Shown: positions 25,587 to 46,900 of the stretch, piece after piece | Position numbering within the stretch: position 1 is the stretch's first letter | How the letters are laid out: every line of letters begins with the position of its first letter | From: a virus | Taxonomy: Duplodnaviria > Caudoviricetes | IMG/VR virus record: IMGVR_UViG_3300031977_001254 | Span: 1 to 57,097 of that record | Length of the DNA stretch: 57,097 nucleotides | Strand: one strand, 5' to 3' | Position numbers and translations under genes: made by a program | Notes under the pieces: generated by a model | Databases searched by the model: none | Told to the model about the DNA's origin: nothing | Seen by the model: only the letters and a program-made list of their open reading frames with translations

Positions 25587-26506
25587 TGGCAGACTTTAGA
25601 AACAACACAAGAAGGTTGCCGACAAAGTTCCATCAAAGTCTTGTTTCCCACATTTTACCTGAGATATTTTCTCAGGATTATCCTAAACTTATATCCTTCT
25701 TAGAAACTTATTATGAGTATGAAGGTGATTTAGGAGAACAATCATTTGACTCTATTATCCGTGAGTTATTTGATATAAGAGATATTTCTTCAACTTCGCT
25801 AGAACACCTTGATTATATCCTATATGAGATTGGTGATGGCTTAGACCATACTCAGTTTGCTGCTAATCCTAGATTGATGGCCAAATTAGTCTCTGCTTTG
25901 TATAGAGCAAAGGGTACACAAATATCTGCTGAGCAGTTCTTCAAGTCATTTTATAATGAGGCTGTTGAGGTTGTGTATCCAAAGTACAACTTATTTGTAC
26001 TCAACTCAAGCTTGATTGGACCACAGTACTTACACTTCATACAAGATGATAAGCGATATCAAATATTCTCTGTTGTTTTGAAAACAGGGTTATCAATATC
26101 TGATTATGAGAAGTTATATAAAAAGTTTATACACCCAGCTGGCTGGCATTTGTCAGCAGATGTTGTTACACAATCAAACGTTGATGTTAATATTTCGGCA
26201 GGTGAACCTGTAGATCCGCTAGAAATACCTAATTATCCAATTGTAATGGGTAACTCTGTAGACGTCGACGCGAATGTTGAATATACATTACTTACTATGA
26301 GGGAGACAGATGTTGCTGATGCTGATATCATTATTAGTTCAGTACCGTTAATGTCAACATATGCAGACCAATCATTTGAATCACTACAAACCGAAGGGTA
26401 TCAAACGTTTGGTGATTTAGTTGACCTTAATACACCAGCAACAATCGATGCTGCTATTTCAGCATCTAGCGTGACACAAACGTTAGATGAAGACGAATAC
26501 AAATAA
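25586..26506 (+). CDS. Baseplate wedge protein, gp7-like
   Basis: LP.....YP..I.FL..YY, LYRAKGT, IQD...YQ.FS, HPAG. Confidence 0.7.
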   Translation: MADFRNNTRRLPTKFHQSLVSHILPEIFSQDYPKLISFLETYYEYEGDLGEQSFDSIIRELFDIRDISSTSLEHLDYILYEIGDGLDHTQFAANPRLMAKLVSALYRAKGTQISAEQFFKSFYNEAVEVVYPKYNLFVLNSSLIGPQYLHFIQDDKRYQIFSVVLKTGLSISDYEKLYKKFIHPAGWHLSADVVTQSNVDVNISAGEPVDPLEIPNYPIVMGNSVDVDANVEYTLLTMRETDVADADIIISSVPLMSTYADQSFESLQTEGYQTFGDLVDLNTPATIDAAISASSVTQTLDEDEYK

Positions 26507-26517
26507 AGAGAACTAAA

Positions 26518-29500
26518 ATGGCTAGACTTATTCTTAATACTGGTATTGGGGCAAACGACGGGAGCGGTGATACGCTACGCGATGCAACCAATAAAATAAA
26601 CGCTAACTTTACCGAGCTATACAGTCTTGTATCGCTTGGTGATGGACTTACACCTGAAGCTCTATCTGCAATGATACTTGACACTGTAAATGAACAGTTG
26701 GTCAACGTCGATGTAGAAAATTCTCCGAGCGTGGTAACATTAGGCGACCGTATAACACAGCACGATTCAATCCTAACTCAATTGCAGCAAGAAGTCTCCT
26801 TACTTGACTCGGAAAATACTGCGCTTGATGTTATATTGTCAGACCAAGCTATCCAAGTCGCATCACTATCCGCACTACTAGATCTCAATGAAGATGCTTT
26901 GAGTGAAGTCGCAGCAAGAATAACTTCTCTTGAAAATACTGATGTATCGGTATCTGACTCTGATGTTCAAGCAGCAGTAGCAGTAGCGGTCGCAGAACTT
27001 AATGCTCGTCTTGCAGCTGACTCTGATGCGTTAACTGCTCTTGCCAATAACTTTAATCTGTTATCATCGCAAGCAACTCAGACGGATAATGAGGTTGAAT
27101 CTCTAGCTCAACAGATTAGTGTATTGGGCGCAGCGCTTGATGCGGTTGATTCTGATTACATTCTTGACGCAACGAATACAGCATTATCTGCTCTTACAAC
27201 TAGAATAAACCAAGATAGTGATTCACTTACAACCCTAGCCAACCAAGTGACTCAACTATCAACTCAGCTTAGTAATCTTGATATTAACGGAGATGCACTT
27301 ACCGCTACAGCTGACCTATTCAATCAAGTACATAGTCGTATTGACCTTGATAGCGCAAGATTAGATGTTGTCTCTCAAGACCTTACTACTTTACAATCTA
27401 CTCTTTCTACAGATATCGTAGACGCAACTGCAGCTTTACAAGGTACGTTGACCACACAAATAAGTGATGTTGATAGCGACTTAGCCATACTAGCACAAGA
27501 CTTAGTACAACTAGAAGCTGACCTACAAGGCGATATAACATCAGCGGTATCAACGGCTGAGTTACAGCTAAACACTCGTATAGATCAAGACAGTGCTGCC
27601 CTACAAGCAGTTTCACAACAACTTATTCAACTTGAAACTGATTTCCAATCATTGGATATTTCAGGTCAAGCAATTGCAGCAACATCATCTGCGGTTAATA
27701 ATTTACAAACTCAGATTACCGCTACTGATAGCGATGTAACCGCATTATCGCAAGACTTAACTGAACTGTCAAGTCAATTAGACACTTTAGATATAGCAGG
27801 CGAAGCAGTTGCTGCCACAGCCGACGCTATTAACAATCTACAGACTCAGATTACTGCGAGTGATAGTGGAATTGAAACTGTCGCGAATGATGTGACTACA
27901 TTAGAAGCATCATTAACTTCTACGCAAAATAACTTGACTTCTACGTCAAATGCGTTACAATCATTAGAGACTCGAGTAAATCAAGATAGTGATCGACTCA
28001 CTTCAGAATCTTCAAGGCTAACTCAACTAGAAACTGTGGTACAAGCCATTGATTCTGACTTCCTATTATCAGGAACTGCAGCTGCTCGTGATGAATTACG
28101 TACATTAATAGAGCAGGGTGATAGCGCGATTGCTTTACTTGCCGAAGATATTACGACTCTTGAAGTTGCTCTTGCTAACGCTGGACTAGATTCAGCATTC
28201 GTTTCAGACTTAGTTGCTTCCGCAGAACAAACATTAAATGCTCGTATAGATGCAACGGATAGTTCTTTATCAGCTGTATCTTCAGATGTGACTACACTCA
28301 CAGCAGACCTTGCTCAACTAGAAACTGACTTATCTGGCTTAGACTTATCAGGTATTGATGCGAATGCGACAGCGCTTAACGATCTTACTGCCCGTGTAGA
28401 TGTTACTGATAGTGGTTTATCATCACTTGCTTCGGACGTTACTAGCCTATCTGCTACGGTTGATGGATTAGATTTCTCTGGCATATCAGCTAATGCTACT
28501 GCAATTGATGCCTTAGAAGTATCTGTTTTAGAAACAGACAGCGCTCTCACAGCAGTTGCTCAAGACGTTACTCAACTAGCAATTGACTTGAATGACCTAG
28601 ATGGTCGTGCTGCAAGCGCTACTGCGTTGAACAACTTAACGACTCGTGTAACATCTACCGAATCATCTATTATATCAAACGCTTCTGATATTACTACGCT
28701 TCAGACTCAAGTAGACAACATTGATGTTGCAGGGGAAGCGGTTGCTGCTACAGCAGACGCAATTACTAATTTACAAACACAGATTACCGCTACTGATAGT
28801 GACTTATCAGTCGTCGCTTCGGATGTAACTCAATTATCAGCAGACCTATCGGGTATTGATCTATCTGGAATTACCGCAAACGCTGATGCTATAACATCAC
28901 TCACTACTCGTGTTGACGCTGACTCTGACTCTCTATCTGTAGTTGCTTCAGATGTTACTCAGCTACAAGCTGACTTGGGTGCAATTGACTTATCAGGTAT
29001 TGCTGCGAATGCTACAGCGCTTGAGTCTCTTGAGACTCGTGTTGATCAAGATAGCGATTCACTTTCTACAGTCGCAAGTCGTGTAACTTCTCTTGAAGCA
29101 ACATTAGCTGAAGGTTTGGACTCAGACGAGATTCTACAAGCAGTTGGCGGAGCGCTTGCTTCTCTAGAAACACGTGTTGATCAAGATAGTGATGCCCTTG
29201 TAATTCTATCCCAAGACGTTACTACATTAAGCGGTTCTTTAGTTGATGCACAAAACGATATCGTAGCGAACACTAATGCTCAAAATGTATTGAGTAATCG
29301 TATTACTGCTACTGATAGTGACTTGATTGCTGTTGCTTCGGACGTTACTCGTTTAGAAGCTGACCTTGGTTCAATTGACTTATCTGGCATCCAAGCAAAT
29401 GCTACTGCCATACAAGGTCTATCAACTACCGTCCAAGATAACATCAATGGTATCAGTACTGTATCGCAATCAGTTACTCAACTTGAAGCAGAGTTTGATG

Positions 29501-32500
29501 CGTTAGATATCTCAGGTATCCAAGCAAATGCCACCACATTGGCTGAACTTACTGCTCGAGTAGATCAAGATAGTGATTCTCTTAACGTATTAACCAGTGA
29601 TGTGGTACAATTATCAACAGAATTATCTGATCTTGATAGTAACACAGGTGCTTCTTTATTCGCATTATCTGATGCGGTATCAACTTTACAATCAAGTGTT
29701 TCACAAACAGATAGCTCTTTATCAATTGTTTCTTCAGAAGTAACTCAGTTAAGTGCTGATCTAGATGCAATTGACTTATCTGGAATTGCCTCAAACGCAA
29801 CTGCGATTCAGTCATTAACAACTAAGGTTCTACAAGATAGCGACCGTCTTACTTCTGTTGCTTCAGACGTGACTGAACTATCAGCTGAACTTGATGCGAT
29901 TGACCTATCTGGAATTACAGCAAATGCAACCGCAATAAGCTCATTAGAGACTTCGGTCCAAAGCACCGATAGTAGTTTAACTGCTCTTGCTTCAGATGTT
30001 ACTGCTATCTCGGCTGAACTTGATGGATTAGACTTATCTGGTATCGCTGCGAATGCTGATGCGTTAGAATCTTTAGATACTCGCGTAACATCTACTGAAG
30101 GAACTGTTACAAGTCAAGCAACCAAACTTGTTAACTTAGAAGCAGCAATTAACGCTGTTGACTTATCAGGTATTGATTCTAACTGGACTTCTATTACAGC
30201 AAACGCTGCTTCACTATCAGATTTAACATCTCGTGTTACTGCGACAGAGGGAAGTGTAACTTCTATATCTGAAGACGTAACTCAATTACAAACTGACTTA
30301 GCAAATGCTGATTCATCATTAGCAGTTACGCAGACAGCCCTTAATACATTAACCTCTCGTGTTGATTTAGATAGCGCAAGTTTAGTTTCTGTTCAATCCG
30401 ACATCACTTCACTCCAAGCAGACGTTACTGGACTGAATAGTTCAAAGGCTACAACAACGGCAGTTAATGCTTTAACCTCTCGTGTAACAGCTACTGAAGG
30501 TGATATTACTGCGGTACAAGGTGATGTTACAACCCTCGAATCTAGCGTAACCGCATTAGATGGAGCCAAAGCAAGTAATACGGCAGTGAACGCTTTAACA
30601 TCTCGTGTTACTGCTACTGAAGGTTCAATCACCTCTGCTCAATCGGACATTACTACATTACAGACCGACGTATCAAATGCTGAAGGAACATTAGCTACAC
30701 AAGGTACAGCGATTGCTGGATTACGTACAGATGTTGATGCTACTGATAGCGCTCTAAGTGTAGCTCAATCAGATATTACTACTCTTGAAACTTCGGTTAC
30801 TGGATTGAATAATTCTAAAGCTACCACAACTGCTGTCAATGCCCTGACTTCTCGTGTAACAGCTACTGAATCAGACATTACGGCGGTCCAAGGTGACATT
30901 ACTACGTTAGGGACTACTGTCGACGGCAAGGCGTCTACGACTGCCGTGAACGCTCTAACGACCCGTGTAACGGCTACTGAGGGCGAGATTAGTACAGTAC
31001 AGGGCGACTTAACATCTCTATCAACTACGGTTGATGGTAAAGCAAGTACAGCAGCACTCAGTAATCTAACAACTCGTGTTACTGCTACTGAAGGTTCAAT
31101 CACTTCTATCAATGAAGACATTGTTGATCTCGGTACTGATATTGATGGTAAGGCAAGTACAGGCGCATTGAGTGCGTTGACTGATCGTGTTGACGCTGAC
31201 AGCGATCGTCTAACAAGCACACAGTCTGACATTACTTCGCTTACTACCACTGTGAATGGTAAGGCATCTTCCTCTGCGGTAAGCGCATTAACAACTCGTA
31301 TGACTGCTGCTGAAGGTGAGATTGATACTGTTCAGTCAGATATCACCACGTTGACTAATAACGTAAATGGTAAAGCAAGCACAACTGCGTTGAATTCATT
31401 AACGACTCGTGTGACAGCTACTGAAGGTGATATTGAAGCTGTTCAAGAAGATGTTACACAACTAACAACTGACCTTGGTACTAAAGCTTCAACAACTGCC
31501 TTGAACACGTTATCAAATCGTGTAACTGAAACTGAAGGTGATATTACTGCGGTTCAGGGAGATATAACATCCCTGACTGCTACCGTCGGCACTAAAGCTT
31601 CAACCACAGCGTTGAATGCTTTACAACAACAAGTAACTTCGGAAGCTGGATTACTTGATACACTACAGACTGATGTTACTAACTTAACAAGTACTGTTGG
31701 CGGTAAGGCTTCAACAACTGCATTGAATACTCTGACGAACCGTGTAACGGCTACTGAGGGTGATATCTCTACGGTTCAATCTGACATCACTAGCTTAACA
31801 AGTACTGTTGGAACTAAAGCTTCAACTAGCGCATTAACATCCCTATCTAATACCGTAAATGATACTGAAACTGGTTTGTCTGCGGTTAATACTAAAGTCA
31901 CCAACTTGTCAACGACAGTTAGTGGTAAAGCAGATACTAGCGCATTAACTACTTTATCTAATACTGTGAATGATACTGAAACTGGATTATCCGCAGTTAA
32001 CACTAAATTGACCAATTTAAGTACAACGGTTGAAGGTAAAGCAACAACTGGAGCAGTAGAAACTTTATCTAATACCGTAAATGATACTGAAACTGGTTTG
32101 TCTGCGGTTAACACTAAACTGACAAGCTTAACTGCGACCGTCGGTACTAAAGCAGCAACTAGCGCATTAACAGCTCTATCTAATCAAATAAATGATAGCG
32201 AAACTGGACTTGAAGCTTTACAAGGTAGTATAACTTCTCTATCAGCTGACCTTGGCAATAAGGCTGAAGCTTCTGCTGTTACTGGGTTAACACAACGTGT
32301 AACTGCTACTGAAGGTAAACAGACCCAAGTAGAACAACGCCACTTTGTTAACTTAGATGCTAACGGACGTGTTGCTGGTACTGAATTATATAATGGAACT
32401 GGTGGTTCTGCGTTTAAAGTTGTAGCCGATAAATTCCAAATATTTAATGGAACTTCAGATGTTTCTCCGTTTACTGTAGCGAATGGTCAGATTAATATGA

Positions 32501-32631
32501 GCGGTGCTACGGTCACTGGCCAGCTAGATGTTAAGTCTGCTACGAGTGGTCAACGTATGGAAATTAACAACTCAACGATTACCATTTATGACGCGTCAGG
32601 AAACATTCGAGTAAAACTTGGAGATATCTAA
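26518..32631 (+). CDS. Giant coiled-coil tail fibre (2037 aa)
   Basis: N-terminal G..ANDGSGDTLR....KIN.NF.ELY attachment motif; about 1850 aa of heptad repeats; C-terminal beta domain (F.V.ADKF...PF.V, RVKLG). Confidence 0.8.
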   Translation: MARLILNTGIGANDGSGDTLRDATNKINANFTELYSLVSLGDGLTPEALSAMILDTVNEQLVNVDVENSPSVVTLGDRITQHDSILTQLQQEVSLLDSENTALDVILSDQAIQVASLSALLDLNEDALSEVAARITSLENTDVSVSDSDVQAAVAVAVAELNARLAADSDALTALANNFNLLSSQATQTDNEVESLAQQISVLGAALDAVDSDYILDATNTALSALTTRINQDSDSLTTLANQVTQLSTQLSNLDINGDALTATADLFNQVHSRIDLDSARLDVVSQDLTTLQSTLSTDIVDATAALQGTLTTQISDVDSDLAILAQDLVQLEADLQGDITSAVSTAELQLNTRIDQDSAALQAVSQQLIQLETDFQSLDISGQAIAATSSAVNNLQTQITATDSDVTALSQDLTELSSQLDTLDIAGEAVAATADAINNLQTQITASDSGIETVANDVTTLEASLTSTQNNLTSTSNALQSLETRVNQDSDRLTSESSRLTQLETVVQAIDSDFLLSGTAAARDELRTLIEQGDSAIALLAEDITTLEVALANAGLDSAFVSDLVASAEQTLNARIDATDSSLSAVSSDVTTLTADLAQLETDLSGLDLSGIDANATALNDLTARVDVTDSGLSSLASDVTSLSATVDGLDFSGISANATAIDALEVSVLETDSALTAVAQDVTQLAIDLNDLDGRAASATALNNLTTRVTSTESSIISNASDITTLQTQVDNIDVAGEAVAATADAITNLQTQITATDSDLSVVASDVTQLSADLSGIDLSGITANADAITSLTTRVDADSDSLSVVASDVTQLQADLGAIDLSGIAANATALESLETRVDQDSDSLSTVASRVTSLEATLAEGLDSDEILQAVGGALASLETRVDQDSDALVILSQDVTTLSGSLVDAQNDIVANTNAQNVLSNRITATDSDLIAVASDVTRLEADLGSIDLSGIQANATAIQGLSTTVQDNINGISTVSQSVTQLEAEFDALDISGIQANATTLAELTARVDQDSDSLNVLTSDVVQLSTELSDLDSNTGASLFALSDAVSTLQSSVSQTDSSLSIVSSEVTQLSADLDAIDLSGIASNATAIQSLTTKVLQDSDRLTSVASDVTELSAELDAIDLSGITANATAISSLETSVQSTDSSLTALASDVTAISAELDGLDLSGIAANADALESLDTRVTSTEGTVTSQATKLVNLEAAINAVDLSGIDSNWTSITANAASLSDLTSRVTATEGSVTSISEDVTQLQTDLANADSSLAVTQTALNTLTSRVDLDSASLVSVQSDITSLQADVTGLNSSKATTTAVNALTSRVTATEGDITAVQGDVTTLESSVTALDGAKASNTAVNALTSRVTATEGSITSAQSDITTLQTDVSNAEGTLATQGTAIAGLRTDVDATDSALSVAQSDITTLETSVTGLNNSKATTTAVNALTSRVTATESDITAVQGDITTLGTTVDGKASTTAVNALTTRVTATEGEISTVQGDLTSLSTTVDGKASTAALSNLTTRVTATEGSITSINEDIVDLGTDIDGKASTGALSALTDRVDADSDRLTSTQSDITSLTTTVNGKASSSAVSALTTRMTAAEGEIDTVQSDITTLTNNVNGKASTTALNSLTTRVTATEGDIEAVQEDVTQLTTDLGTKASTTALNTLSNRVTETEGDITAVQGDITSLTATVGTKASTTALNALQQQVTSEAGLLDTLQTDVTNLTSTVGGKASTTALNTLTNRVTATEGDISTVQSDITSLTSTVGTKASTSALTSLSNTVNDTETGLSAVNTKVTNLSTTVSGKADTSALTTLSNTVNDTETGLSAVNTKLTNLSTTVEGKATTGAVETLSNTVNDTETGLSAVNTKLTSLTATVGTKAATSALTALSNQINDSETGLEALQGSITSLSADLGNKAEASAVTGLTQRVTATEGKQTQVEQRHFVNLDANGRVAGTELYNGTGGSAFKVVADKFQIFNGTSDVSPFTVANGQINMSGATVTGQLDVKSATSGQRMEINNSTITIYDASGNIRVKLGDI
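30750..32330 (+). repeat. Degenerate ~36-39 aa coding repeats (KASTTALN.LT.RVTATEG.I..VQ.DIT.L)
   Basis: More than a dozen copies visible in the translation; boundaries approximate. Confidence 0.8.
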
Positions 32632-32677: not shown

Positions 32678-34015
32678 ATGCCAGCTATAATTCGACAAAC
32701 AATGAGCAGGAACCTCGCAAGAGACCTGCTCAATGACGTCACAGATAATTCTAACAATAGTAACTATTATATCGGTATTGGTAAATCCGATGTATTCAAT
32801 GATGAAGATACAGTAATTGCACCAGTTGACAGTATTCTTGAAGAACAAGAATTCAGAAACAACCTTCAATCAATCAAGAAAGTAGAAGGTGCTACATTTG
32901 TAGCTAAACGTTACAACTGGTCATCTGGTTCTGTTTATTCTGGAACTAGCAATGCACTAGGATCATCTACTCCATATCCGTTCTATGTATTAAATGACGC
33001 AAAAGAAGTTTATATTTGCCTCGAGACAGGAACGACTGAGACTGGAGAAGTAAACGTTTCTACTATTGAACCAAACTATGGTACACTAGGCGTTGATCAT
33101 ACTATTCAGTTTAGAACTGGAGACGGATATGTCTGGAAATTCTTATTTTCACTAACTCCCGAAAACATCTATCAGCATTTATCGTCTAACTGGATTCCTG
33201 TTGACCTTCCGGAAGAATCACTAGCTGGCGGTGACTCTATCGAAGATCTACAATTTGAAGTTAAGTCGGCTGCTGTTGGCGGTCAAATAATTCGCAGTGA
33301 GATTATTAATCCTGGATCTAACTTCACCAACGCTCCTACAATAACAATAGAAGGTGATGGCGAAGGTGCTTCTGCGACTGCATATATTAATAATGGTTCT
33401 ATCTCTAAAATCGCAATGGATAGTTATGGCCATGGTTATTCATATGCAACAATTGTTGTAAATGGTGACGGTCAAGATGCTAAATTAAGAGCGGTTATTA
33501 CTGATTCTAATGGTATCGGATATGATCCAATTAATGATTTAAAAATAAGCTCCGTTATGTTTAACATTAAACCAAATGGCGAAGAAGGCGGTGAGTTCAT
33601 CGTTGAAAACTCTTTCCGTCAAATGGGTCTTATGAAGAATCCAAATACTCCGACAGGCATCCCATTTACTGCTTCGGTAGCGAAAGTATTACCAACGCTT
33701 GAACTTTCTTCAACTTCACCGTTTCAATCTGGTAAGACTATTACTGGAATGCAATCTGGTGCGGTCGCATATTTAAACCAGTCTGAAGATAATATATTAC
33801 ATTATCACCAAAATGAATCTACTGGGTTCTTACCTTTCCAAAATGGAGAAAGTATATCTCAAGAAGGTGTATCAACGATAGCAACCTTATCCCAGAAACA
33901 AGACAAGAATGGTATAGACCGTTTTTCAGGTGACGTGCTTTATATTGAGAATAGATATCGTATCAGAAGAGACGCTGAACAGCAAGAAGATATCAAAATA
34001 GTTATCACACTTTAG
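32678..34015 (+). CDS. gp8: Baseplate wedge subunit gp8
   Basis: R.NW.SG..Y, FYV.....VYICL, DGYVWKFL, SGD.LYIENR..I.R...Q.EDIKI. Confidence 0.85.
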   Translation: MPAIIRQTMSRNLARDLLNDVTDNSNNSNYYIGIGKSDVFNDEDTVIAPVDSILEEQEFRNNLQSIKKVEGATFVAKRYNWSSGSVYSGTSNALGSSTPYPFYVLNDAKEVYICLETGTTETGEVNVSTIEPNYGTLGVDHTIQFRTGDGYVWKFLFSLTPENIYQHLSSNWIPVDLPEESLAGGDSIEDLQFEVKSAAVGGQIIRSEIINPGSNFTNAPTITIEGDGEGASATAYINNGSISKIAMDSYGHGYSYATIVVNGDGQDAKLRAVITDSNGIGYDPINDLKISSVMFNIKPNGEEGGEFIVENSFRQMGLMKNPNTPTGIPFTASVAKVLPTLELSSTSPFQSGKTITGMQSGAVAYLNQSEDNILHYHQNESTGFLPFQNGESISQEGVSTIATLSQKQDKNGIDRFSGDVLYIENRYRIRRDAEQQEDIKIVITL

Positions 34016-34023
34016 GATACCCG

Positions 34024-37000
34024 ATGAGCAATTTTACTAATAAAACATTTAAAGAAACATATCGTGATTCCTTCGATAAAACAAACGGCTATCATCGTGT
34101 ATTATTTAATGCAGGTAAGGCGCTACAAGCAAGAGAACTAAATGAGCTACAATCTATCTTCCATGAAGAACTTGCTCAATTTGGTCGTAACATCTTTAAA
34201 GAAGGCGCTATGGTCCATGCTGGTGGTTCTATGGTGGATAATTCTAAAGAATATATCCGACTACAACCAAGCAGTTTAGTACCAGACAATATTGTAGGTC
34301 AAGAATATCAAAACAGTCAAGGGATTAAATTCTTAATTGAAGAGTATCATCAAGCAACTGATACTGCACCCCAAACTCTCATTGTAAAATATACAGATAC
34401 AACAGCTGTATCTGATGCGTCAGAAGCACCACGTGTGTCTGCTAATCAGACATTAACTCCTGTGGGCGCAACTACATTCCCATTAACTGTAGCAAGCGAT
34501 GACGCTATCCCTGCAGTTGGAACGGGTACACTTATCTCAATTAGTGAAGGTGTATTTTTCGTAGATGGTCACTTCGTACAAGTAGAACAACAGTCAATAT
34601 ACATTGACATGTATAATTCAAAACCAACTGTTGACTTTGGTTTTAAAATAGTAGAAACTATAGTTACAGAAAGTGAAGATGATGGCTTGTATGATAACCA
34701 AGGAGAATTTCCAAATACTGCTGCTCCAGGTGCTCATAGATTTAAAATTGAACTTACTCCAGCAACAAGAGATCAAGTTCCAGAAGAAGAAAACTTCGTA
34801 TTTGTTGCTCGCATAGTTAACGGTGTTATTACTCGCGAAGTTGAAAGTAACGATGCATATAACATTATTAATGACTTGCTCGCTACCCGCACAAAAGAAG
34901 AATCTGGCGATTACGTAGCAAAAGAATTTAAAACTGTTGTTAATGAAAAAGACGATAGTAATTTAGATTTAGAAGTAACCCCTGGAACTGCTTACGTTGA
35001 TGGATATCGACTAGACTTTGGTACTACAAATTTAGATTTAGAAAAGGCTCGTGATACAGACAGTCTAAACAACGATAGCGTAATTGCTCAATATGGCAAC
35101 TATGTTGTTATCGATGAAGCATTAAGCACAGGTCTTTCTGAATTATCAACATTCGGTGAAGTAAGTTTAGGTGGTTCAAGTACTGCTAATGTAAGAGCTA
35201 TTGAAAATGTTGGCGGAGAATATAGACTATATCTCTTCAATATTAATATGGAAGTGGGTTCAAGCTTCAGAGACGTTACTACTATTACAGGTTCTAATGG
35301 TTCTGTTACAGTTAAGTCTTCAGGATTGTTAGGTGGTATCGATAATACATTATTGTTCCCATTATCTAATCCACGCCCTCAAGCGATAACTGACACTAAC
35401 TATACAGCACAACGTACAATTGAAGCATCGTCAGACGCATCGGGTGAAGTATTTATCTCTGAGACTGTTGACGCATCATACAACCCAGTTATATTTGAGG
35501 TTGGTGTTGGTCCTGCTACTGGTTGGTCTGTCTCTTCTAATAAAATAACAGGGTTATCTCCTTCAACAGCATATATTATAACATATTACTTTGCTGTTCC
35601 TTCTCCTGCAGTAAGATCAAAAGGTATGGCAACCGTAACCGAGAGTGTAACTCTAGGCTCTGGTGCTGCCCCTATAGATGGTCCAAACTTTACCCAAGGC
35701 GAAACTATGTGGCGTGTAGAAAACTCTACAGGCGCTGCGAGCATTGTCTGGAACGGAGAATTAATAACATCTGCGAGTTCAGCAAGTGGAATCACTACAC
35801 TAAATGCTGAGGGTTATCAATACACTCGCGGAAGCGCACAAACTCCAACGTTTACTCAATCATTTGCCCCTACATTTACAAATACAACATATGTAAACTT
35901 TGTGGGGAATTACACTAGGGATTTAAGCTTTACTGCCAGCAGAACAAGTAGCTATACGGCTTCTTATGCTGGAGAAAGGGTTCAATACTTTACTCGCTTT
36001 GGTGGTAATCCTAGAGAACCTATTTTCATAATAACTTCATCTGTGGTTCCTGGAACATTTACTGGAACACCATCAACCCGTGCGTTCACAAGTGACTTCA
36101 CTCGTTCATCTTCATATACTAGATCCCGTGCAAGTTCATACACTGGAACGTATACCCAAGGTGGAGATACTGGTACCAACGGAAACTTTACATATTATGA
36201 AGTTTCTCGTCAAGCATTGGCAAGTAGTACTTCAGACGCTTCTGTAATTGAACTTGATTATGCCGATGGTATTGAATTACTTTCTGTTTTAGATGATAGT
36301 GGTACTAACGTTACAGCTTCATTTGAATTTGATGGTGGTCAACGTGATAACTTCTATGGACCAATTAAGCTGAGACTTAAATCTGGTCTTACAGCTCAAG
36401 CAGGTTCTACATATACGGTACAATTCTCTCACTTCTATCATGAAGAAGGAGATTATTTCAGCGTGGAATCATATCCACAAGACTATGGTTTAATCCCATC
36501 ATATAAGAATTCCGCAGGTAATACAATCGCATTAACAGACGTTCTTGATTTCCGTCCAGTGGTTTTACCTTCTGGTGTAGATACTAACAGCATTAATGTA
36601 CTACCTAAGAATAAAAGTATTATTAGTGTAGACGCTACTTACTATCTACCACGTATCGATACTCTTGTTGCTAATACGTTAGACGCTAAAGGCAGAATTG
36701 GTACTGGCCGACTACAACTAATTCAAGGTGAGTCTTCATTAGACCCACGTCCACCTCAAATTCCAACTGGTTCATTACCATTATTCCAGTTTGATTTGAA
36801 TCCTTACACTGTAGACAAGACGGACTTAACAGTTACTAAGATTCCACACAAGCGTTTCACTATGAAAGATATCGCTAAGTTGGAAGAACGTGTTGAAGAA
36901 CTGTATGAATTAACGACTCTTAGTTTACTTGAAGCTGATACAGCTTCTCTTATGGTATTGGATGAGAATGGCAATAACCGCACTAAGTCTGGTTTTATTG

Positions 37001-39345
37001 CAGACAACTTTAACAGCTTAAACTTCTGTGATCTCAGCAATCCTGATTATCGCGCTTCAGTTGAGCCTGTTAATGGCGAACTAATGCCATCATTTAGAGA
37101 GAACTCAATTCGCTTATCAATGCGTGCTAATTCAACTGCACGTAAACAAGGCGATGTTGCTATATTACCATATACTAACGATTTAATGGCTTCTCAGTTA
37201 TTGGCGACTGGTAAGATGAATGTTAACCCATTTGCGGTTATCACTCAAACTGGCCACATGACACTATCACCTGCTTCAGATGAGTGGGTTGAAGTTCGTA
37301 AACTTCCAGATATTATGCAAAGCAATATCCGTAGAGTACGTACTGACAACAGAGCAACAACTAGAGGTAAACGTATTCGCACTCGTGTAGTTGAAAGAAC
37401 TATCCAAGAATTCTTGGGCGAGCAAGTTGTAGATGTTGAAGTAGTACCATTTATGCGTTCACGTGAAGTATTCTTCCGTGTTGAAGGTCTACGTCCTAAC
37501 ACTAATATGTTTGCTTTCTTTGGTAACAAACCAGTACAAGATTGGGTTCGTCAAGAAATTCGATTCAAGCACTTCTCTGACAATCCTAAAGAATATGGAA
37601 GCGAGTTTGCTAATGCTACCAGCCACCCAAGTGGAAACACTGAATTGGTAACTGATGAAAATGGTATGCTAATTGGTTCTTTCTTCTTACCAAATACCCC
37701 TAGCTTGTCATTCCGTACTGGACAGCAAGAATTTAAACTACTTGATATTGTAGTGAATGACGATGAGAATGCTATTGCTTCTTCACGTGCTATGTATGAA
37801 TCTGTAGGTCGTATTGACTCAGTACAACGTACAATTCGCTCAACCCGTATCGTAGAAAGTATTACAGAAAGATATGACCCATTAGCTCAAACGTTCTTTG
37901 TTGATCAGATTGAGAATCCAAATGGATTGTATCTATCTAAAGTAAGAATCTTCATGGAAAGTAAAGATGATACTATTCCTTTACAAGTACAAATTCGTCC
38001 TGTAGAAAATGGTATTCCGACTACACGTTTGGTTCCAGGTTCTTCTAAGTTTATATCTCCTTCTCTCATCAACGTAACACCGATGACGGATCAGACTGAT
38101 ATTGCTGACATCAGAACACAAGGCGGTACTGATGTTCAATTTGATGAACCAGTTTACTTATCTCCAGGCGAAGAATATGCAGTAGTACTATTAGCAGAGT
38201 CTGTTAAGTATAACGCATATGTTGCTGAAACTTATGAATTCATTCTTGGTCCAAACCGACGCGAAGGACGTGTTAACAAGCAACCAACTCTTGGTTCTTT
38301 ATTCTTATCGCAGAATGGTTCTACTTGGACAGCAGACCAAACTAAAGACTTGATGTTTGAATTATATAACGCATCGTTCTCGACTTCTGCTAACGTGGTT
38401 TTATCTAATGTAGAAGTTCCTAAGATTACTCTTGGTAATGATCCTATTTCAGTTGAACGTAGTAGTGCTTTGGTTCATATCGCGCATCAAGGACATGGAT
38501 TTAACGCTAATGATGAAGTTGAAATCTCAGGCGTACAAGGTACAATTGGTGGGGTAAGCGCATCAAGTATTAACGGCAATCATATTATCGCAAGTGTTTC
38601 TTGGGATGGTTATACAATTAATGCTGGCACAGTCGCTACTTCATCTGTATTAGGTGGTGGTGATCAGGTTGTAGTTAATGAACAAATTATGATTGATGAG
38701 TTGATCCCTAACATCGCTAACATCATTCCAAATGGAACAAGCATTACTGCTACAGTCCGCCAGACTTCTGGCGCTTCTTATGGCGGTAATCGTAACAATC
38801 CATTGTATAATAACTCATATTCTTCGGTTGCGTCTAAGCAGGTATTCCTGAATGACTCTAACCTAAATGATAAGCCAACTATTGTTGCTTCTCCTGAAGA
38901 TATGGAATTTGTTGTAACGTTGTCAACAAATGATACTAAAGTATCTCCTTTGATTGACCTTCAACGAACTTCTGTAATGACTATAGAAAATGTTATAGAT
39001 ATGAATGATGCTGCTCAACATATCACAACTCCAGTAATCTTAGATGAAGCTGCTGAAGGACTTAAAATATTGTTCTCTGCGCACCGTCCAAGTGATGCTC
39101 AGTTTGATGTGTATGTTAAAACTGCCACAGACGATTCATCTTTAGAGATCGCTGATTGGGTTAAAGTTGATATTGAAGCTGAAGTTCCAAGCGATGAAAG
39201 TCGTGATGTTGTACGTGAATACTCATACAGCATAGAAACTCTAGACCAATTTAGCATATTCCAAACTAAGCTTGTTATGAAATCAACTAACTCAAGTAAA
39301 GTTCCTATTGTTACTGATTTCAGAACTATAGCGCTGGCGGTATAA
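34024..39345 (+). CDS. Large baseplate/virion structural protein (DUF4815/VrlC-like) with a Tyr/Thr/Arg hairpin insert
   Basis: Y.D.FD...YHRVLF..G.ALQARELN.LQS, APGAHR, R...ESGDY, YYLPRID, KSGF..DNF, DPLAQTF, GSLF.SQNGSTW. Confidence 0.85.
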   Translation: MSNFTNKTFKETYRDSFDKTNGYHRVLFNAGKALQARELNELQSIFHEELAQFGRNIFKEGAMVHAGGSMVDNSKEYIRLQPSSLVPDNIVGQEYQNSQGIKFLIEEYHQATDTAPQTLIVKYTDTTAVSDASEAPRVSANQTLTPVGATTFPLTVASDDAIPAVGTGTLISISEGVFFVDGHFVQVEQQSIYIDMYNSKPTVDFGFKIVETIVTESEDDGLYDNQGEFPNTAAPGAHRFKIELTPATRDQVPEEENFVFVARIVNGVITREVESNDAYNIINDLLATRTKEESGDYVAKEFKTVVNEKDDSNLDLEVTPGTAYVDGYRLDFGTTNLDLEKARDTDSLNNDSVIAQYGNYVVIDEALSTGLSELSTFGEVSLGGSSTANVRAIENVGGEYRLYLFNINMEVGSSFRDVTTITGSNGSVTVKSSGLLGGIDNTLLFPLSNPRPQAITDTNYTAQRTIEASSDASGEVFISETVDASYNPVIFEVGVGPATGWSVSSNKITGLSPSTAYIITYYFAVPSPAVRSKGMATVTESVTLGSGAAPIDGPNFTQGETMWRVENSTGAASIVWNGELITSASSASGITTLNAEGYQYTRGSAQTPTFTQSFAPTFTNTTYVNFVGNYTRDLSFTASRTSSYTASYAGERVQYFTRFGGNPREPIFIITSSVVPGTFTGTPSTRAFTSDFTRSSSYTRSRASSYTGTYTQGGDTGTNGNFTYYEVSRQALASSTSDASVIELDYADGIELLSVLDDSGTNVTASFEFDGGQRDNFYGPIKLRLKSGLTAQAGSTYTVQFSHFYHEEGDYFSVESYPQDYGLIPSYKNSAGNTIALTDVLDFRPVVLPSGVDTNSINVLPKNKSIISVDATYYLPRIDTLVANTLDAKGRIGTGRLQLIQGESSLDPRPPQIPTGSLPLFQFDLNPYTVDKTDLTVTKIPHKRFTMKDIAKLEERVEELYELTTLSLLEADTASLMVLDENGNNRTKSGFIADNFNSLNFCDLSNPDYRASVEPVNGELMPSFRENSIRLSMRANSTARKQGDVAILPYTNDLMASQLLATGKMNVNPFAVITQTGHMTLSPASDEWVEVRKLPDIMQSNIRRVRTDNRATTRGKRIRTRVVERTIQEFLGEQVVDVEVVPFMRSREVFFRVEGLRPNTNMFAFFGNKPVQDWVRQEIRFKHFSDNPKEYGSEFANATSHPSGNTELVTDENGMLIGSFFLPNTPSLSFRTGQQEFKLLDIVVNDDENAIASSRAMYESVGRIDSVQRTIRSTRIVESITERYDPLAQTFFVDQIENPNGLYLSKVRIFMESKDDTIPLQVQIRPVENGIPTTRLVPGSSKFISPSLINVTPMTDQTDIADIRTQGGTDVQFDEPVYLSPGEEYAVVLLAESVKYNAYVAETYEFILGPNRREGRVNKQPTLGSLFLSQNGSTWTADQTKDLMFELYNASFSTSANVVLSNVEVPKITLGNDPISVERSSALVHIAHQGHGFNANDEVEISGVQGTIGGVSASSINGNHIIASVSWDGYTINAGTVATSSVLGGGDQVVVNEQIMIDELIPNIANIIPNGTSITATVRQTSGASYGGNRNNPLYNNSYSSVASKQVFLNDSNLNDKPTIVASPEDMEFVVTLSTNDTKVSPLIDLQRTSVMTIENVIDMNDAAQHITTPVILDEAAEGLKILFSAHRPSDAQFDVYVKTATDDSSLEIADWVKVDIEAEVPSDESRDVVREYSYSIETLDQFSIFQTKLVMKSTNSSKVPIVTDFRTIALAV

Positions 39346-41217: not shown

Positions 41218-41688
41218 ATGGCTGATTATACTTTATCATATACAAGGACATTATCATTTGCTGGTAATTATGTTGCCGTAACTTCTTCTCGGGATTATAC
41301 CAGATATCGCGACAGTACATTTTCGCAAGGTTTTACAACAAGCTATGACGGCACGTATTCAAGGGATTATATAGGAAACTATTCAAGGGATTATACAGGC
41401 TATTATAGCAGATCCTTTTCGCGTACAAGAATAGAATCATATGCGGGCGATAGAACACAGAACTTTACTGCTGTCAGAACATCTGTAACAAGTACAAGAT
41501 TCGACGAAGATTACTTTAGTAGAACGCTAAACTATACTACTTATTATTCAAGAGCTAGAGCACAGAACTTCCTAAGAGATTATACCGCATTTTATGGCGG
41601 TTCATACACACGTGTTTGTACTCGTTCATCTGAAGTTGTTACTTGTACAGTGTTTGTTGGCGCGCCACCAGGATTCCAGGAGAACTAA
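41218..41688 (+). CDS. Tyr/Thr/Arg tetrapeptide-repeat protein (156 aa)
   Basis: YSRD/YIGN/YTGY units; AAGGA SD. Confidence 0.75.
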   Translation: MADYTLSYTRTLSFAGNYVAVTSSRDYTRYRDSTFSQGFTTSYDGTYSRDYIGNYSRDYTGYYSRSFSRTRIESYAGDRTQNFTAVRTSVTSTRFDEDYFSRTLNYTTYYSRARAQNFLRDYTAFYGGSYTRVCTRSSEVVTCTVFVGAPPGFQEN

Positions 41689-42473
41689 TGCCAACTTACG
41701 ATTATACAACCACTCAATATTTTTCCAGAACTATAACACGTGCTGGTGGAACATCAGCTGATTTTACTGGGTTTAGTAGAACTGGATACTTTTCAAGATA
41801 CCGCCCTGAAGTCACGAGTACTCGTATTGGTACATACGCCCGAAGTTATTATAATCCCCAAGGCGAACCAAATATATTATTCTACGCTACCTCATACACC
41901 GGAGATTTCGTAGGTAATTTTACTCGAACTACATATGGATACTTTAGTAGAACATCTGTTGAAGATTATACTGGATATTATTCTAGAGCCTTTATCGGGA
42001 ATTACTCTAGAGATTTTGTAGGCACATATTCTAGATCTTCGACTGGAGTCTTTACTGGAACATTCACAAGATCGTATAGCAGAAACTTTACTAGAGATTA
42101 TACAATAACATCTACCAGAACAAGTACATACACACGTACAATATCAGGTGGTTCTGGGGAAGCTCCTACATATACAGCATCGTCAGGTTCTGATGCTGAA
42201 TACGGATTAGTTGTATATGGTCCAGATGGTACTACAGAAATAATTAATCCTACAACGCGAGTTATTAATTTGGCATTCTACGGAACTGTTGCGGTTAACG
42301 CTAACTCATCAGCTACCGTAACAATCGAAGATGTTGGTGATCCTAGTAAAGTCACAGTATCCTTAGTTGTATTCTATGAGGGTATTAATTTAACAACATC
42401 GGGCAATACGTTGACAGTTACTAATACTAGAAATTACAATGTTAGTCCTACCTTAATTGCGATAAGGATTTAG
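41688..42473 (+). CDS. Tyr/Thr/Arg tetrapeptide-repeat protein with C-terminal tail-tip-like beta domain
   Basis: TAATG overlap and AGGAGA SD place the start at 41688; YGLVVY..DG domain. Confidence 0.75.
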   Translation: MPTYDYTTTQYFSRTITRAGGTSADFTGFSRTGYFSRYRPEVTSTRIGTYARSYYNPQGEPNILFYATSYTGDFVGNFTRTTYGYFSRTSVEDYTGYYSRAFIGNYSRDFVGTYSRSSTGVFTGTFTRSYSRNFTRDYTITSTRTSTYTRTISGGSGEAPTYTASSGSDAEYGLVVYGPDGTTEIINPTTRVINLAFYGTVAVNANSSATVTIEDVGDPSKVTVSLVVFYEGINLTTSGNTLTVTNTRNYNVSPTLIAIRI

Positions 42474-43237: not shown

Positions 43238-43708
43238 ATGAGTAAAGTAGTAAAATATGTGGCTACTATTGAGGAAAGTACAGGTCGCATTATGAATGTA
43301 GAATTTCCTCAAGCAACATTAAAGCCAGAAGGTACAACGGATGGGATGACGGTAATCCATATTACTGAAGATAACATGCCAGAAGGGTTCATGAACATTG
43401 GGTGGAATCCAATGCTTCACTTTTGGGATGGTGAGACATTCATTCACGTAGGTACACCGCCTAATCGTCACGCTATATATAATGGTACAGATTGGGAATG
43501 GGATCAAGAGTTATTGGTGAGTGATGTTAGAACACATCGTGACCGTTTACTAGCTCAAAGCGATTGGACTCAAATGCCAGACGCTCCATTCACAGAAGAA
43601 GAAAAGACTGCTTGGCAAGCATATCGTCAAGAACTCAGAGACTTTATGTCTAGTCTACCAAATGAATTTGATTCTGTGCAATCATTATCATGGCCAATTC
43701 AACCATAG
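43238..43708 (+). CDS. Tail fibre assembly chaperone
   Basis: R..RDRLLAQSDWTQ.PD.P......W..YRQELRD...WP..P. Confidence 0.85.
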   Translation: MSKVVKYVATIEESTGRIMNVEFPQATLKPEGTTDGMTVIHITEDNMPEGFMNIGWNPMLHFWDGETFIHVGTPPNRHAIYNGTDWEWDQELLVSDVRTHRDRLLAQSDWTQMPDAPFTEEEKTAWQAYRQELRDFMSSLPNEFDSVQSLSWPIQP

Positions 43709-43941: not shown

Positions 43942-46900
43942 GTGTCAGCATCTAGTATCCCATTAAAAATACTAAATTCAGATGGTGACCTGAGGGAATT
44001 CACGCCAATAGAAGAAAACTATTTGGCGTATGCAGTCGGACAAGCATTATTGACACCAGATACTGGCTCATTAACTCTTGATCCTAGTGGCGTTGCGGTT
44101 GGTTCATATGTTGATACATATTTCAACGAATCACCTGGAACTCACCCTGCTAGTCAGATCACATCTGGATCAACTACTACGACCTTGCGTCAAGTGGCTG
44201 GACCAGCAAGTGAATCTGGTCAGAATATTCCTGTAGGTTACTACGAACAAGACCCAAATCCAGGCTTCTACGAAATGGTAGACGCGGATTTAACTAATCT
44301 CGCTAAACGTGTATTGGGTAATATGGTCGAAAATGACTATATTGGAACATACAGATTAGCATCTTCTTCTCCAGGTTCTGATTATTCTATTCACATTTCT
44401 AATGTGTTTTCAGATACCCGTGGCGACGGAGCATCAACTAACTATCACATCTATGTCCGTAATTCAATGGCATCTGTTGCAGCAACTCGTCCTGTTCGTA
44501 TTCGTTATGACGGTTCAAGCTTCGACGGCTTCCAAGAAATGACAGACGCTGAGATCCAACAAGTATTGGGTCAACGCATTAAAACATTAAGAGCAAGTGC
44601 AGGCGAGATTGGTTCATACCAGTTACGTTCTTCAGCACAAGGTGCTCCAATCGGTGGTGGTGTATGGAGAGCAGTTGGTACAGCTTTTAATACAAAATTA
44701 ACAACAGCACAGATTGACTATACTCGCACACGTAACTCTGCTTATGTTCAGACTCGCGTGTCGGCATATACTCGTAACCGTATTTCAACTTTTGTTGGTA
44801 CATACTCAAGAACAACAAGCAATGTATTCGCAGGTAACTACATTGGAAACTACTCACGTGGTTTTACTGGTAACTACTCACGTGGTTTTGCTGGTGAATA
44901 CACTGGTGATTTCATTGGCGTATATTCTCGTCTACGTTCTTCTGCATATTCTGCAAACTATACTCGCGAAAGAATTTCAACATATACTGGAACTTATTCA
45001 CGTACTCGTGTAAGCACATACGTTGGTAACTATGCTCGCGCATTTGCTGGCGAATACACTCGTGGGTTTGCTGGTAACTATACTGGTGAGTTTACTCGTA
45101 CTCGTATAAGCTCTTATGTTGGTGTATATGCGCGTACACGTACATCTACTTACTCAGGTAACTACTCAAGAAACTTTGCGGGCAACTATTCTCGTGGATT
45201 TACTGGTGAATACTCTCGTGCATATACTCGCGAACGTATCTCATCATACACAGGAACCTATTCGCGCACTCGTGTAAGTACATATGCTGGTAACTATTCT
45301 CGTGGATTTGCTGGCAACTATAGCCGTGGATTTGCTGGTAACTATAGCCGTGCATTTACTCGTAGCCGTGTATCAGCTTATGCTGGAACATATTCTAGAG
45401 ATCGTGTAAGTACATATGCTGGCAACTACGCTCGCAACTTTATAGGTAATTACTCACGTGCATTTGCTGGTAACTATAGCCGTGCATTTACTCGTGGTCG
45501 TGTTTCTACGTTTACTGGAACATATTCACGTACACGTAATTCATCTTATGCTGGTACTTACTCTCGTGGATTCACAGGCAACTACAGCCGTGCGTTCGGC
45601 GGTAACTATGCTCGTGCGTTTACACGTGGTCGCGTTTCTACCTTTACTGGTGAATATGCTCGTACTCGTAACTCAGCTTACTCAGGTACATATGCCCGTG
45701 GATTCGTAGGTAACTATGCTCGTGGATTCGTTGGTAACTACGCTCGTGCGTATACTCGTGGTCGTGTTTCTACTTTCAGTGGTACATATTCACGTACTCG
45801 CCCATCTAGCTACTCTGCAGACTACACGCGTAATCGTGTAAGCACATATGCTGGTACTTACTCACGTAACCGCGTTTCAGTTTATTCACGTAACCGTGTT
45901 TCTGCTTATGCAGGTACATATGCTCGTAACCGTGTAAGCTCTTATGCTGGTACATATTCACGTAACCGTGTATCATCTTACGCTGGTACTTACGTTAGAA
46001 CTCGTTCAAGCGCATACTCGCGCGTTCGCTTAACTGCGTTTGCTGCTGATTACACAGGCGTTTATACTCGTGCTCGCGCTTCAGTTTATACTCGTGCTCG
46101 TGTAAGTTCATACGCTGCTGATTACACAGGCGTTTACTCACGTAACCGTGTAAGCACATACGCCCGTACTCGTACTTCTGCTTATGCTGCTGACTACACT
46201 GGCACATATTCACGTAATCGTGTAAGTACATATGCTCGTACTCGTAGCTCTGCTTATGCTGGTACATATACAGGCGTTTATTCACGCAACCGTGTATCAA
46301 CATACTCGCGTGCTCGTACATCAGCTTATGCTCGTGACCGTGTAACGAACTTTGCTGGTAACTTTATCGGTAACTATTCACGTGGGTTTGCTGGTAACTA
46401 TTCTCGTGGATTCGTTGGTAACTATTCTCGTGGGTTTGCTGGTAACTATATCGGTAACTATGCAAGAACAAGTACTCGTACTTCTACGCGTGGTCGTGTT
46501 TCATCTTACGCTCGTACTCGTGTTACTAACTATGTTGGCGACTTTACTAGAAACAGACTTGTAACATATACTGGCGATTTCATCGGTAATTATGCAACTA
46601 CATTTACTGGTGACTTCGTAGGCAACTATGCTCGTAACTATGTTGGCGATTTTGCTGGTAACTTTACTGGTAATTATGCAACTACGTTTACTGGCGACTT
46701 TGTTGGTAACTATGCTCGTGGATACGCAGGCAACTATGCTGGTAACTTTGTTGGCGAATATGCCCGTACACGCGTTACTGACTATGCTGGCGATTTCGTA
46801 GGTAACTATGCAACTACATTTACTGGTGACTTCGTAGGTAACTATGCTCGTGGATATGCTGGTAACTTTGCTGGTAACTTTGTTGGTGAATATGCTCGTA

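Follow-up and report, generated by a model that had tools for sequence, protein, structure and literature searches.

Staphylococcus phage 812 carries its tripod proteins as twelve trimers on the baseplate arms, and these have CBM-like and lectin-like domains that are thought to bind the cell wall, as well as putative receptor- or glycan-binding domains, according to PMC13433997. The tripod (DUF4815) shares its family with the VrlC proteins of Vi1-like, SPO1-like, cyano- and pelagimyophages; PMC7029224 describes VrlC as a core gene of pelagi- and cyanomyophages, and names the region after it the host recognition cluster. We found a member of this family, at the same place in the baseplate block, in a 57,097-nucleotide stretch of viral DNA (Duplodnaviria; Caudoviricetes; IMG/VR record IMGVR_UViG_3300031977_001254, positions 1 to 57,097), here called the window. 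Its protein contains a small beta module and, within one loop of that module, an insert of 118 residues made of the same material as a 2059-residue repeat protein (the giant) encoded further along the window. The insert is probably a two-stranded beta-ribbon stalk that presents a variable tip for accessory contact with the host surface.

Several described beta structures resemble the insert and the giant. Designed tryptophan zippers and other hairpins held by cross-strand aromatic or cation-pi contacts, and the aromatic rescue of glycine in beta sheets, are peptides of 12–20 residues or local features. What they would share with our proteins is a stability drawn from directly opposed aromatic pairs (Tyr:Tyr) and from Arg set against Phe or Gly across one side of a two-stranded sheet, but the ladder predicted here would extend for 28–38 rungs along the insert and ~880 along the giant, and would belong to a natural virion protein. 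SasG/Aap G5-E repeats and the single-layer sheet of OspA are thin beta rods without a hydrophobic core, three-stranded and composed of tandem domains. Like these rods the insert would be an elongated, monomeric beta spacer projecting a functional end, but as a single out-and-back hairpin with complementary arms; sequence was compared through Pfam only, with no match. The receptor-binding needle of the T4 long tail fiber protein gp37, reportedly described by Bartual and colleagues in 2010, has a chain that runs out to a distal tip and back, leaving its ends proximal and the tip as the host-contact site. PMC6957217 describes the needle as an intertwined trimer with seven iron ions on His-x-His motifs; the insert and the giant's arms differ from it in having no His, hence no such motif, and no sequence or Pfam similarity to it was found.

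The protein that hosts the insert belongs to a widespread family of baseplate proteins and is unremarkable within it. Its open reading frame (ORF) of 1773 residues matches Pfam DUF4815 in three stretches (E 1.8e-61, 208.6 bits, cutoff 30), as well as PHROG 358, and matches the PDB chain 9euf_0 (E 4.9e-38), which is 1152 residues long, is labeled "DUF4815 domain-containing protein" and comes from 9EUF, a structure of the phage 812 baseplate. Four stretches align to that chain (aa 12–66, 170–359, 858–1095 and 1129–1476), and aa 360–857 have no sequence-level counterpart in its 1152 residues. The gene sits in a baseplate block with a gp6-like gene (23817..25586), a wedge subunit gene (25586..26506) and a gp8-like gene (32678..34015). 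The closest GenBank genome is that of Phage C48C1 (Kyanoviridae), with identical gene order and 47.6% identity over the VrlC protein. The parts of the gene that concern us are as follows.

34024..39345 (+): host gene, a 1773-residue DUF4815/VrlC (tripod-type) baseplate protein; single ORF, Pfam PF16075
35617..36444 (+): beta-sandwich host domain (aa ~532–807), split by the inserted block, as seen in the AlphaFold model
35656..35832 (+): N-terminal part of the small beta module (aa 545–603, TMWRV...IVWNGE...GYQYTRG), present without the hairpin in L017–L019
35833..36000 (+): N arm of the putative hairpin (aa 604–659), with a conserved base at aa ~604–644, from the alignments
35956..36084 (+): hypervariable distal third of the putative hairpin (aa 645–687), by pairwise identity
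36001..36021 (+): turn GGNPREP (aa 660–666), at the insert midpoint
36022..36159 (+): C arm of the putative hairpin (aa 667–712), with a conserved base at aa 688–712, from invariant residues and the pair-code match to the N-arm base
36160..36186 (+): Gly/Thr/Asn linker back into the module (aa 713–721), from the alignment; coil in the model
36187..36228 (+): closing strand of the module (aa 722–735, FTYYEVSRQALASS), contiguous with the module in L017–L019

A first-pass annotation, made by a model from the window alone, had described a miniature complementary hairpin at 35842..36195, corresponding to aa 607–724 of the one ORF. The segment is real, and alignment to relatives places its true limits three codons upstream: 118 aa between Q-Y-T-R-G and F-T-Y-Y, that is aa 604–721 or nt 35833–36186. 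The turn GGNPREP lies precisely where it had been placed, at the midpoint of the insert between arms of 56 and 55 aa.

The insert is lineage-specific, and the relatives form a nested series. An alignment query recovered 45 VrlC loci on viral contigs (L numbers), where a single-protein query found none; a metagenome scan returned two loci, both on contigs already in the set. The window and 24 of the 45 loci make up a 25-sequence alignment, which leaves out L015 (it matches L014) and 20 of the 23 loci of a group at 31–38% identity (L026, L035 and L043 were kept). Sixteen of the 25 homologs are without module or hairpin. Three (L017, L018 and L019) have the module only, a ~70-aa beta unit in which only 8 aa, at the hairpin site, link Y-x-R-G to the closing strand, and this bears out the first-pass statement that the insert interrupts a small beta module. 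The other six (the window, L002–L005 and L023) have the module with an insert of 118–126 aa in its loop. In a separate alignment of nine sequences eight carry the ~190-aa block, C48C1 being the one without it. Five database proteins (P0005–P0009) likewise have module and hairpin, the fragment P0020 is a tenth hairpin variant, and the inserts of P0010 (184 aa, aa 602–785) and P0011 (194 aa, aa 609–802) are longer by an extra domain of 65–75 aa at the hairpin midpoint. The presence and absence of the insert, which the first-pass annotation had proposed to read from a homolog alignment, thus show a block that is not universal in VrlC; module and hairpin alike are missing from C48C1 and from 16 of 25 homologs closer than the phage 812 chain.

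A FastTree tree built from 33 rows on the first 530 aa, which leaves out the insert, united all 13 hairpin-bearing rows in one group with support of only 82. The module-only rows grouped with 14 module-less rows (support 96), so the tree does not single out a history of "module first, then hairpin". The two rows with the tip domain, P0010 and P0011, fall in different VrlC subclades, which suggests that the distal part has likely been exchanged between phages. Their tip domain contains a D-G-G-x-x-W motif, which we take to resemble an Asp-box (BNR). It has no Pfam match at E up to 1, although both proteins match DUF4815; a chance-level E1_FCCH match in P0010 (aa 1552–1573, E 0.14, 12.7 bits, cutoff 29.5) is outside the tip domain. 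The VrlC proteins of five loci without the hairpin (L007, L008, L012, L016 and L022) are ~90–120 aa longer than that of the window, and give faint, non-significant matches to a hidden Markov model (HMM) of the module at aa ~1770–1850 (full E 0.07–4.3).

Lys, His, Cys and Trp are all missing from the insert, in which Tyr and Phe together make up 16% of the residues, Thr and Ser 36%, Gly 9.3% and Arg 7.6%; VrlC outside the insert has 3.3% Lys and an ordinary composition. The giant is free of the same four residues and is rich in Tyr, Phe, Thr, Ser, Arg and Gly. Seven of the 18 spacings between aromatic residues in the insert are 4 and two are 8, while in the giant 242 are 4 and 62 are 8. With composition adjustment, the best BLASTP match between insert and giant has an E of 2e-7, so that insert and giant do use the same vocabulary, as first proposed, and the turn of the L004 variant aligns onto the giant's turn (31.6 bits, E 2e-5). 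By motif density this material occurs in four ORFs of the window, the three others being:

41218..41688 and 41688..42473 (+): two overlapping ORFs of the same material, of 156 aa and ~261 aa (ATG at 41688), from motif density and translations
43942..50121 (+): the 2059-aa giant repeat protein, source of the pairing code (mirror statistics)

The insert is internal to VrlC and is without the ~250-aa N-terminal domain and the C-terminal E-T-Y-T-L-Y-x-R-V-A end of the giants; it shares their material and is not a member of their protein family. A recent intragenomic copy was considered and rejected, since DNA matches extend over no more than 31 nt between insert and giant (81% identity, E 0.016) and no more than 27 nt between insert and small ORF (85%, E 0.005). 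It is very improbable that the hairpin instead grew by local duplication in the module loop and converged on the giant's material, with no module transfer. The shortness of these DNA matches would fit such an origin, as would the composition of the insert, a Thr/Ser-rich dialect of the giant's. However, the turn P-P-x-G-P-D-P-G-E-P of four hairpin variants matches the central P-P-x-G-P-D-P-G-D of the giants, and the giants have tip modules that are probably homologs of the module in which the hairpin sits (see below).

In the giants the chain very probably doubles back on itself to form two complementary arms. The giant of the window, for which neither Pfam nor PHROGs gave a family, begins with a ~257-aa N-terminal domain, followed by a repeat region at aa 258–2040, the midpoint of which is a turn, G-P-P-M-G-P-D-P-G-D (aa 1144–1153), between arms of 886 and 887 aa. 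Over 1800 centers, the mirror correlation of smoothed Gly density between the arms has its global minimum at 1149.5 (r = -0.69; background 0.005 +/- 0.16), and that of Arg density its minimum at 1144.0 (-0.55). Arg-Gly mirror pairs peak at center 1148.5 with 91, against a mean of 16.6 (sd 12.5), although registers one repeat unit off score nearly as high (81, 80 and 78). The Arg-Gly maximum falls at the turn or a tip module in all six giants in which it was located (window, L005, L019, L021, L022 and the truncated L014); in the truncated giants L016 and L020 the mirror scan found no clear center, its minima being weak (r -0.36 and -0.45) and not located at any turn. Five giants together gave 3374 mirror pairs, and enrichment among these was seen for the direct pairs Y:Y, R:F, F:R, G:R, R:G, N:A, A:N, V:T and T:V, and these make up the pairing code. 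AlphaFold of the giant's center (aa 1000–1300, 4-row alignment) was uninformative, with a mean predicted local distance difference test score (pLDDT) of 27.9 and strands that are not symmetric.

The giant's N-terminal domain was found in only one of 50,697 phage records. These records contain no isolate of the hairpin-bearing clade; C48C1 has a giant but no VrlC hairpin. Directly upstream of the giant is a gene for a tail-fiber assembly chaperone (43238..43708, +; Pfam Phage_tail_APC, PF16778, E 2.6e-18), which supports the giant being a fiber. The metagenome protein P0016 (1067 aa) is a distant relative of the giants, with the same N-terminal domain and a C-terminal E-T-Y-T-L-Y-A-R-V-A end; its arms are in a Val/Asp-rich dialect and its center is a ~280-aa non-repeat domain. 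No precedent for the material or its pairing code was found in Pfam, PHROGs, PDB, ESM Atlas, two large protein searches or literature searches; the last gave no description of such hairpin fibers, and the fiber architecture is apparently undescribed.

The giants' code was used as a scoring matrix on the insert and its homologs, as is permissible because the code was not trained on these smaller hairpins. The best local mirror segment of the window insert was equaled by two of 300 composition-preserving shuffles; for the homologs the number of shuffles reaching the score was 0 (P0005, L004, P0011), 1 (P0006), 7 (P0007), 8 (P0009, P0010) or 9 (P0008). In eight of nine homologs this segment joins the two conserved arm bases, N-F-V-G-N-Y-T-R-D-L-S-F on the N side and Y-T-R-S-S-S-Y-T-R-S-R-A on the C side, and in seven of the nine the mirror center is at most 4 aa from the P-x-E-P turn. 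The mirror score exceeds the parallel score in all nine. The center in P0011 is at 100.5, across the tip domain (insert midpoint 97.5). The length supported by pairing is 28 residue pairs in the window protein, or ~10 nm, and up to 38 pairs in P0005.

A mirror had first been drawn between short units of the two arms, FVGN-YTRD-LS-FTAS-RTSS (aa 626–643) and FTSD-FTRS-SS-YTRS-RASS (aa 688–705). These units are present as quoted, but their mirror match is weak by itself, with only three of the five units alike and only two unit types; the mirror relation exceeds chance only when the giants' pairing code provides the scoring. We also considered, and rejected, that the mirror arises from a palindrome in the DNA, because Y:Y, R:G and R:F pairs are not reverse-complement codon relations and because the sole inverted match is a 22-nt arm with 77% complementarity.

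Structure prediction, also proposed by the first-pass annotation, was run with AlphaFold2 on aa 440–860 (22-row alignment, 421-residue model). Flanks and module are modeled well, at pLDDT 69–93, with the module at 69–84, its closing strand (aa 722–734) at 76–82, and the beta-sandwich domain (model residues 93–368) at 72–91 outside the hairpin. In the insert, strands at aa 630–644 and 647–657 mirror strands at aa 670–680 and 684–698 about aa 664. Foldseek found no match to the model in PDB at E <= 0.001, and VIA-align gave middling Z values (best 7.6). The beta-sandwich domain has a weak match to residues 240–406 of 9euf_0 (Z 6.6, root-mean-square deviation 2.6, 84 residues aligned).

We favor a hairpin because of the pair-code test, the mirror-symmetric strands of the model, and the domain nested at the midpoint in P0010 and P0011. 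The topology agrees, as the insert starts and ends in one module loop and is without hydrophobic core residues. Several results nevertheless weigh against this reading. The insert (aa 611–719) is modeled at a pLDDT of only 30–47, so that the hairpin is inferred rather than shown; the first-pass hairpin stands as a segment in a loop, centered on a Pro/Gly turn, made of the giant's material and best explained by this fold, while the symmetric strands of the model do not establish the fold itself. For the window the mirror score is little above the parallel score (14.2 vs 11.3), and centers 65.0 and 61.0 compete. Scored over whole arms without gaps, the code gives no significant result for four of seven inserts, those of the window (162 of 500), P0007, P0008 and P0009. 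The mirror register of the invariant residues (center aa 664.0, six pairs) is not significant either, as 2282 of 20,000 permutations reach it. The best mirror segment of P0010 lies elsewhere than at the arm bases. Lastly, that chain 9euf_0 is the "tripod protein gp119" of PMC13433997 is our inference, as the available portion of that paper gives neither accession nor length.

The insert as a flexible, unstructured Thr/Ser-rich spacer with a merely compositional likeness to the giant is an explanation we regard as quite unlikely. It would account for the low pLDDT, the 36% Thr+Ser, the non-significant whole-arm score of the window and the near absence of matches in the Atlas and profile searches. 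Conservation speaks against it: 23 of the 118 positions are invariant across eight sequences, in an every-second-residue pattern on both arms, and the arm bases are conserved like the rest of the protein. The composition-adjusted BLASTP match to the giant (E 2e-7) and the rarity of equal mirror scores among same-composition shuffles (2 of 300) also go beyond composition.

Conservation is unevenly spread along the insert. Mean pairwise identity among the six hairpin-bearing homologs is 0.75–0.81 over the VrlC body; the module stands at 0.76 and the two arm bases at 0.68 and 0.76, but the distal part (aa 645–687) at only 0.34; the range for other parts of the protein is 0.60–0.81. From these values, the stalk base is constrained like the rest of VrlC while the tip diversifies. 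The invariant residues of the N arm are F626, G628, N629, Y630, R632, R640 and Y644, and those of the C arm F688, S696, Y698, R700, R702, S704, Y706 and Y710. Within the distal part only the turn prolines (P663 and P666) are invariant, in eight of eight sequences. The turn of relatives, G-P-D-P-G-E-P, resembles the giant's central G-P-D-P-G-D.

In the arrangement that we propose, the ~70-aa beta module is itself inserted in the beta-sandwich domain of the tripod-type baseplate protein, and the insert would leave and re-enter one loop of the module as an antiparallel two-stranded beta-ribbon, its arms of 56 and 55 aa running to the turn G-G-N-P-R-E-P and back. The basal halves would be joined by the cross-strand pairs of the giants: Tyr-Tyr, Arg-Phe or Arg-Gly, and small-small. 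Predicted rungs include F626/R702, G628/R700 and Y630/Y698, with Y706 as the other candidate partner of Y630. The distal third and the turn evolve fast, and in two relatives they carry the extra domain, presumably globular. A fast-evolving tip or extra domain on a conserved base would therefore make the stalk a spacer that holds a variable tip off the baseplate periphery. The tip would stand 10–19 nm from the periphery, ~10 nm for 28 rungs and at most ~19 nm if all 56 residues of each arm were extended; the projection of about 20 nm given in the first-pass annotation is thus an upper bound, the pairing in the window protein supporting 28 pairs and ~10 nm. Accessory contact with the host surface is the probable role of the tip.

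Could the three hairpins of a tripod trimer form one six-stranded fiber, as the chains of the T4 gp37 needle do? The homologous protein of phage 812, the only one for which trimers docked on a baseplate arm are known, is trimeric (PMC13433997), one face of the arms has only small residues (N:A, V:T, S and T pairs) that could pack in a core, and low monomer pLDDT is common for obligate oligomeric fibers. The insert, however, belongs to a module at the periphery that two levels of insertion separate from the conserved core, nothing puts its copies near the threefold axis, and with no His it has no His-x-His metal sites. We consider such a bundle unlikely.

The overlapping pair of small ORFs (41218..42473) has a homologous overlapping pair (179–180 and 284–285 aa) in L002, L005 and L023, and because of this conservation is not a sequencing frameshift. 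The second of these ORFs has an N-P-Q-G-E-P turn like that of the insert and ends in a non-repeat beta-rich domain. It has little probability, in our view, that the VrlC hairpin is a docking strap, pairing in trans (beta-sheet augmentation) with the small ORF pair or with the giant's arms and so tying fibers to the baseplate. In its favor, four ORFs of the window share the material, the small pair co-occurs with the VrlC hairpin in those three loci, and the code could in principle act between chains. Against it, pairing of the two small ORFs with each other under the code came out ambiguous (mirror 24.4 vs parallel 23.5). Giants also adjoin VrlC genes without a hairpin (C48C1, L014, L019, L021 and L022), and so need none for attachment, and the hypervariable distal third and the tip domain nested there in two relatives fit the exposed tip of a stalk better than a buried strap.

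The hairpin had been called a portable module that can be grafted into loops of virion proteins. This is only partly supported: we found a single graft site, and the block nowhere else in the databases searched, while the material does occur in four ORFs of the window and the beta module probably recurs. A search of 5.8 billion proteins gave module and hairpin in VrlC relatives only. A profile search of 1.84 billion proteins gave four matches, three to spurious repeat proteins and one to a true relative of giant type, and the ESM Atlas gave no usable match.

The beta module is a different case. Segments like it are found at the center of two giants, with one copy in L021 (9470–14683, aa ~960–1040) and two in L022 (19531–24978, aa ~948–1128). 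BLASTP of the VrlC module against a giant tip segment gives 32% identity over 47 aa (E 7e-4), and hhalign with small alignments gives a probability of 88% (E 3e-6) over 59 columns that include the closing strand. The tip segments were chosen for these comparisons after being seen, and a plain HMM of the VrlC module missed them even with filters off and E up to 50; for these two reasons we call the module probably, not firmly, homologous to the tip modules of the L021 and L022 giants. If this is true, one small domain would be the distal tip of giant hairpins and, in VrlC, the socket for a small one. A broader suggestion, which we offer tentatively, is that the Tyr/Phe-Arg-Gly material is a register-encoding "protein zipper", its code folding one chain into a two-stranded ribbon at lengths from 118 to ~1800 aa, and that it serves this lineage as a cut-to-length stalk that joins baseplate or fiber to interchangeable tip domains.

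Another long protein lies close by: between the wedge genes and the gp8-like gene is a 2037-aa coiled-coil protein (26518..32631, +), matching PHROG 2589 ("tail protein") in 18 stretches. In C48C1 the corresponding protein carries the annotation of a baseplate wedge tail fiber connector.

If the ribbon fold is true, insert and module together (~190 aa) would be an expressible fragment for solving the fold and testing the pairing code; if it is false, the insert is simply a fast-evolving low-complexity loop. Should the zipper suggestion be true as well, the VrlC insert would be the smallest natural example of such a fold, and therefore a tractable model for an undescribed class of fiber fold. 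The hypervariable tip, with the domain nested there in two relatives, is a likely determinant of host range in an uncultured group of marine T4-like phages.

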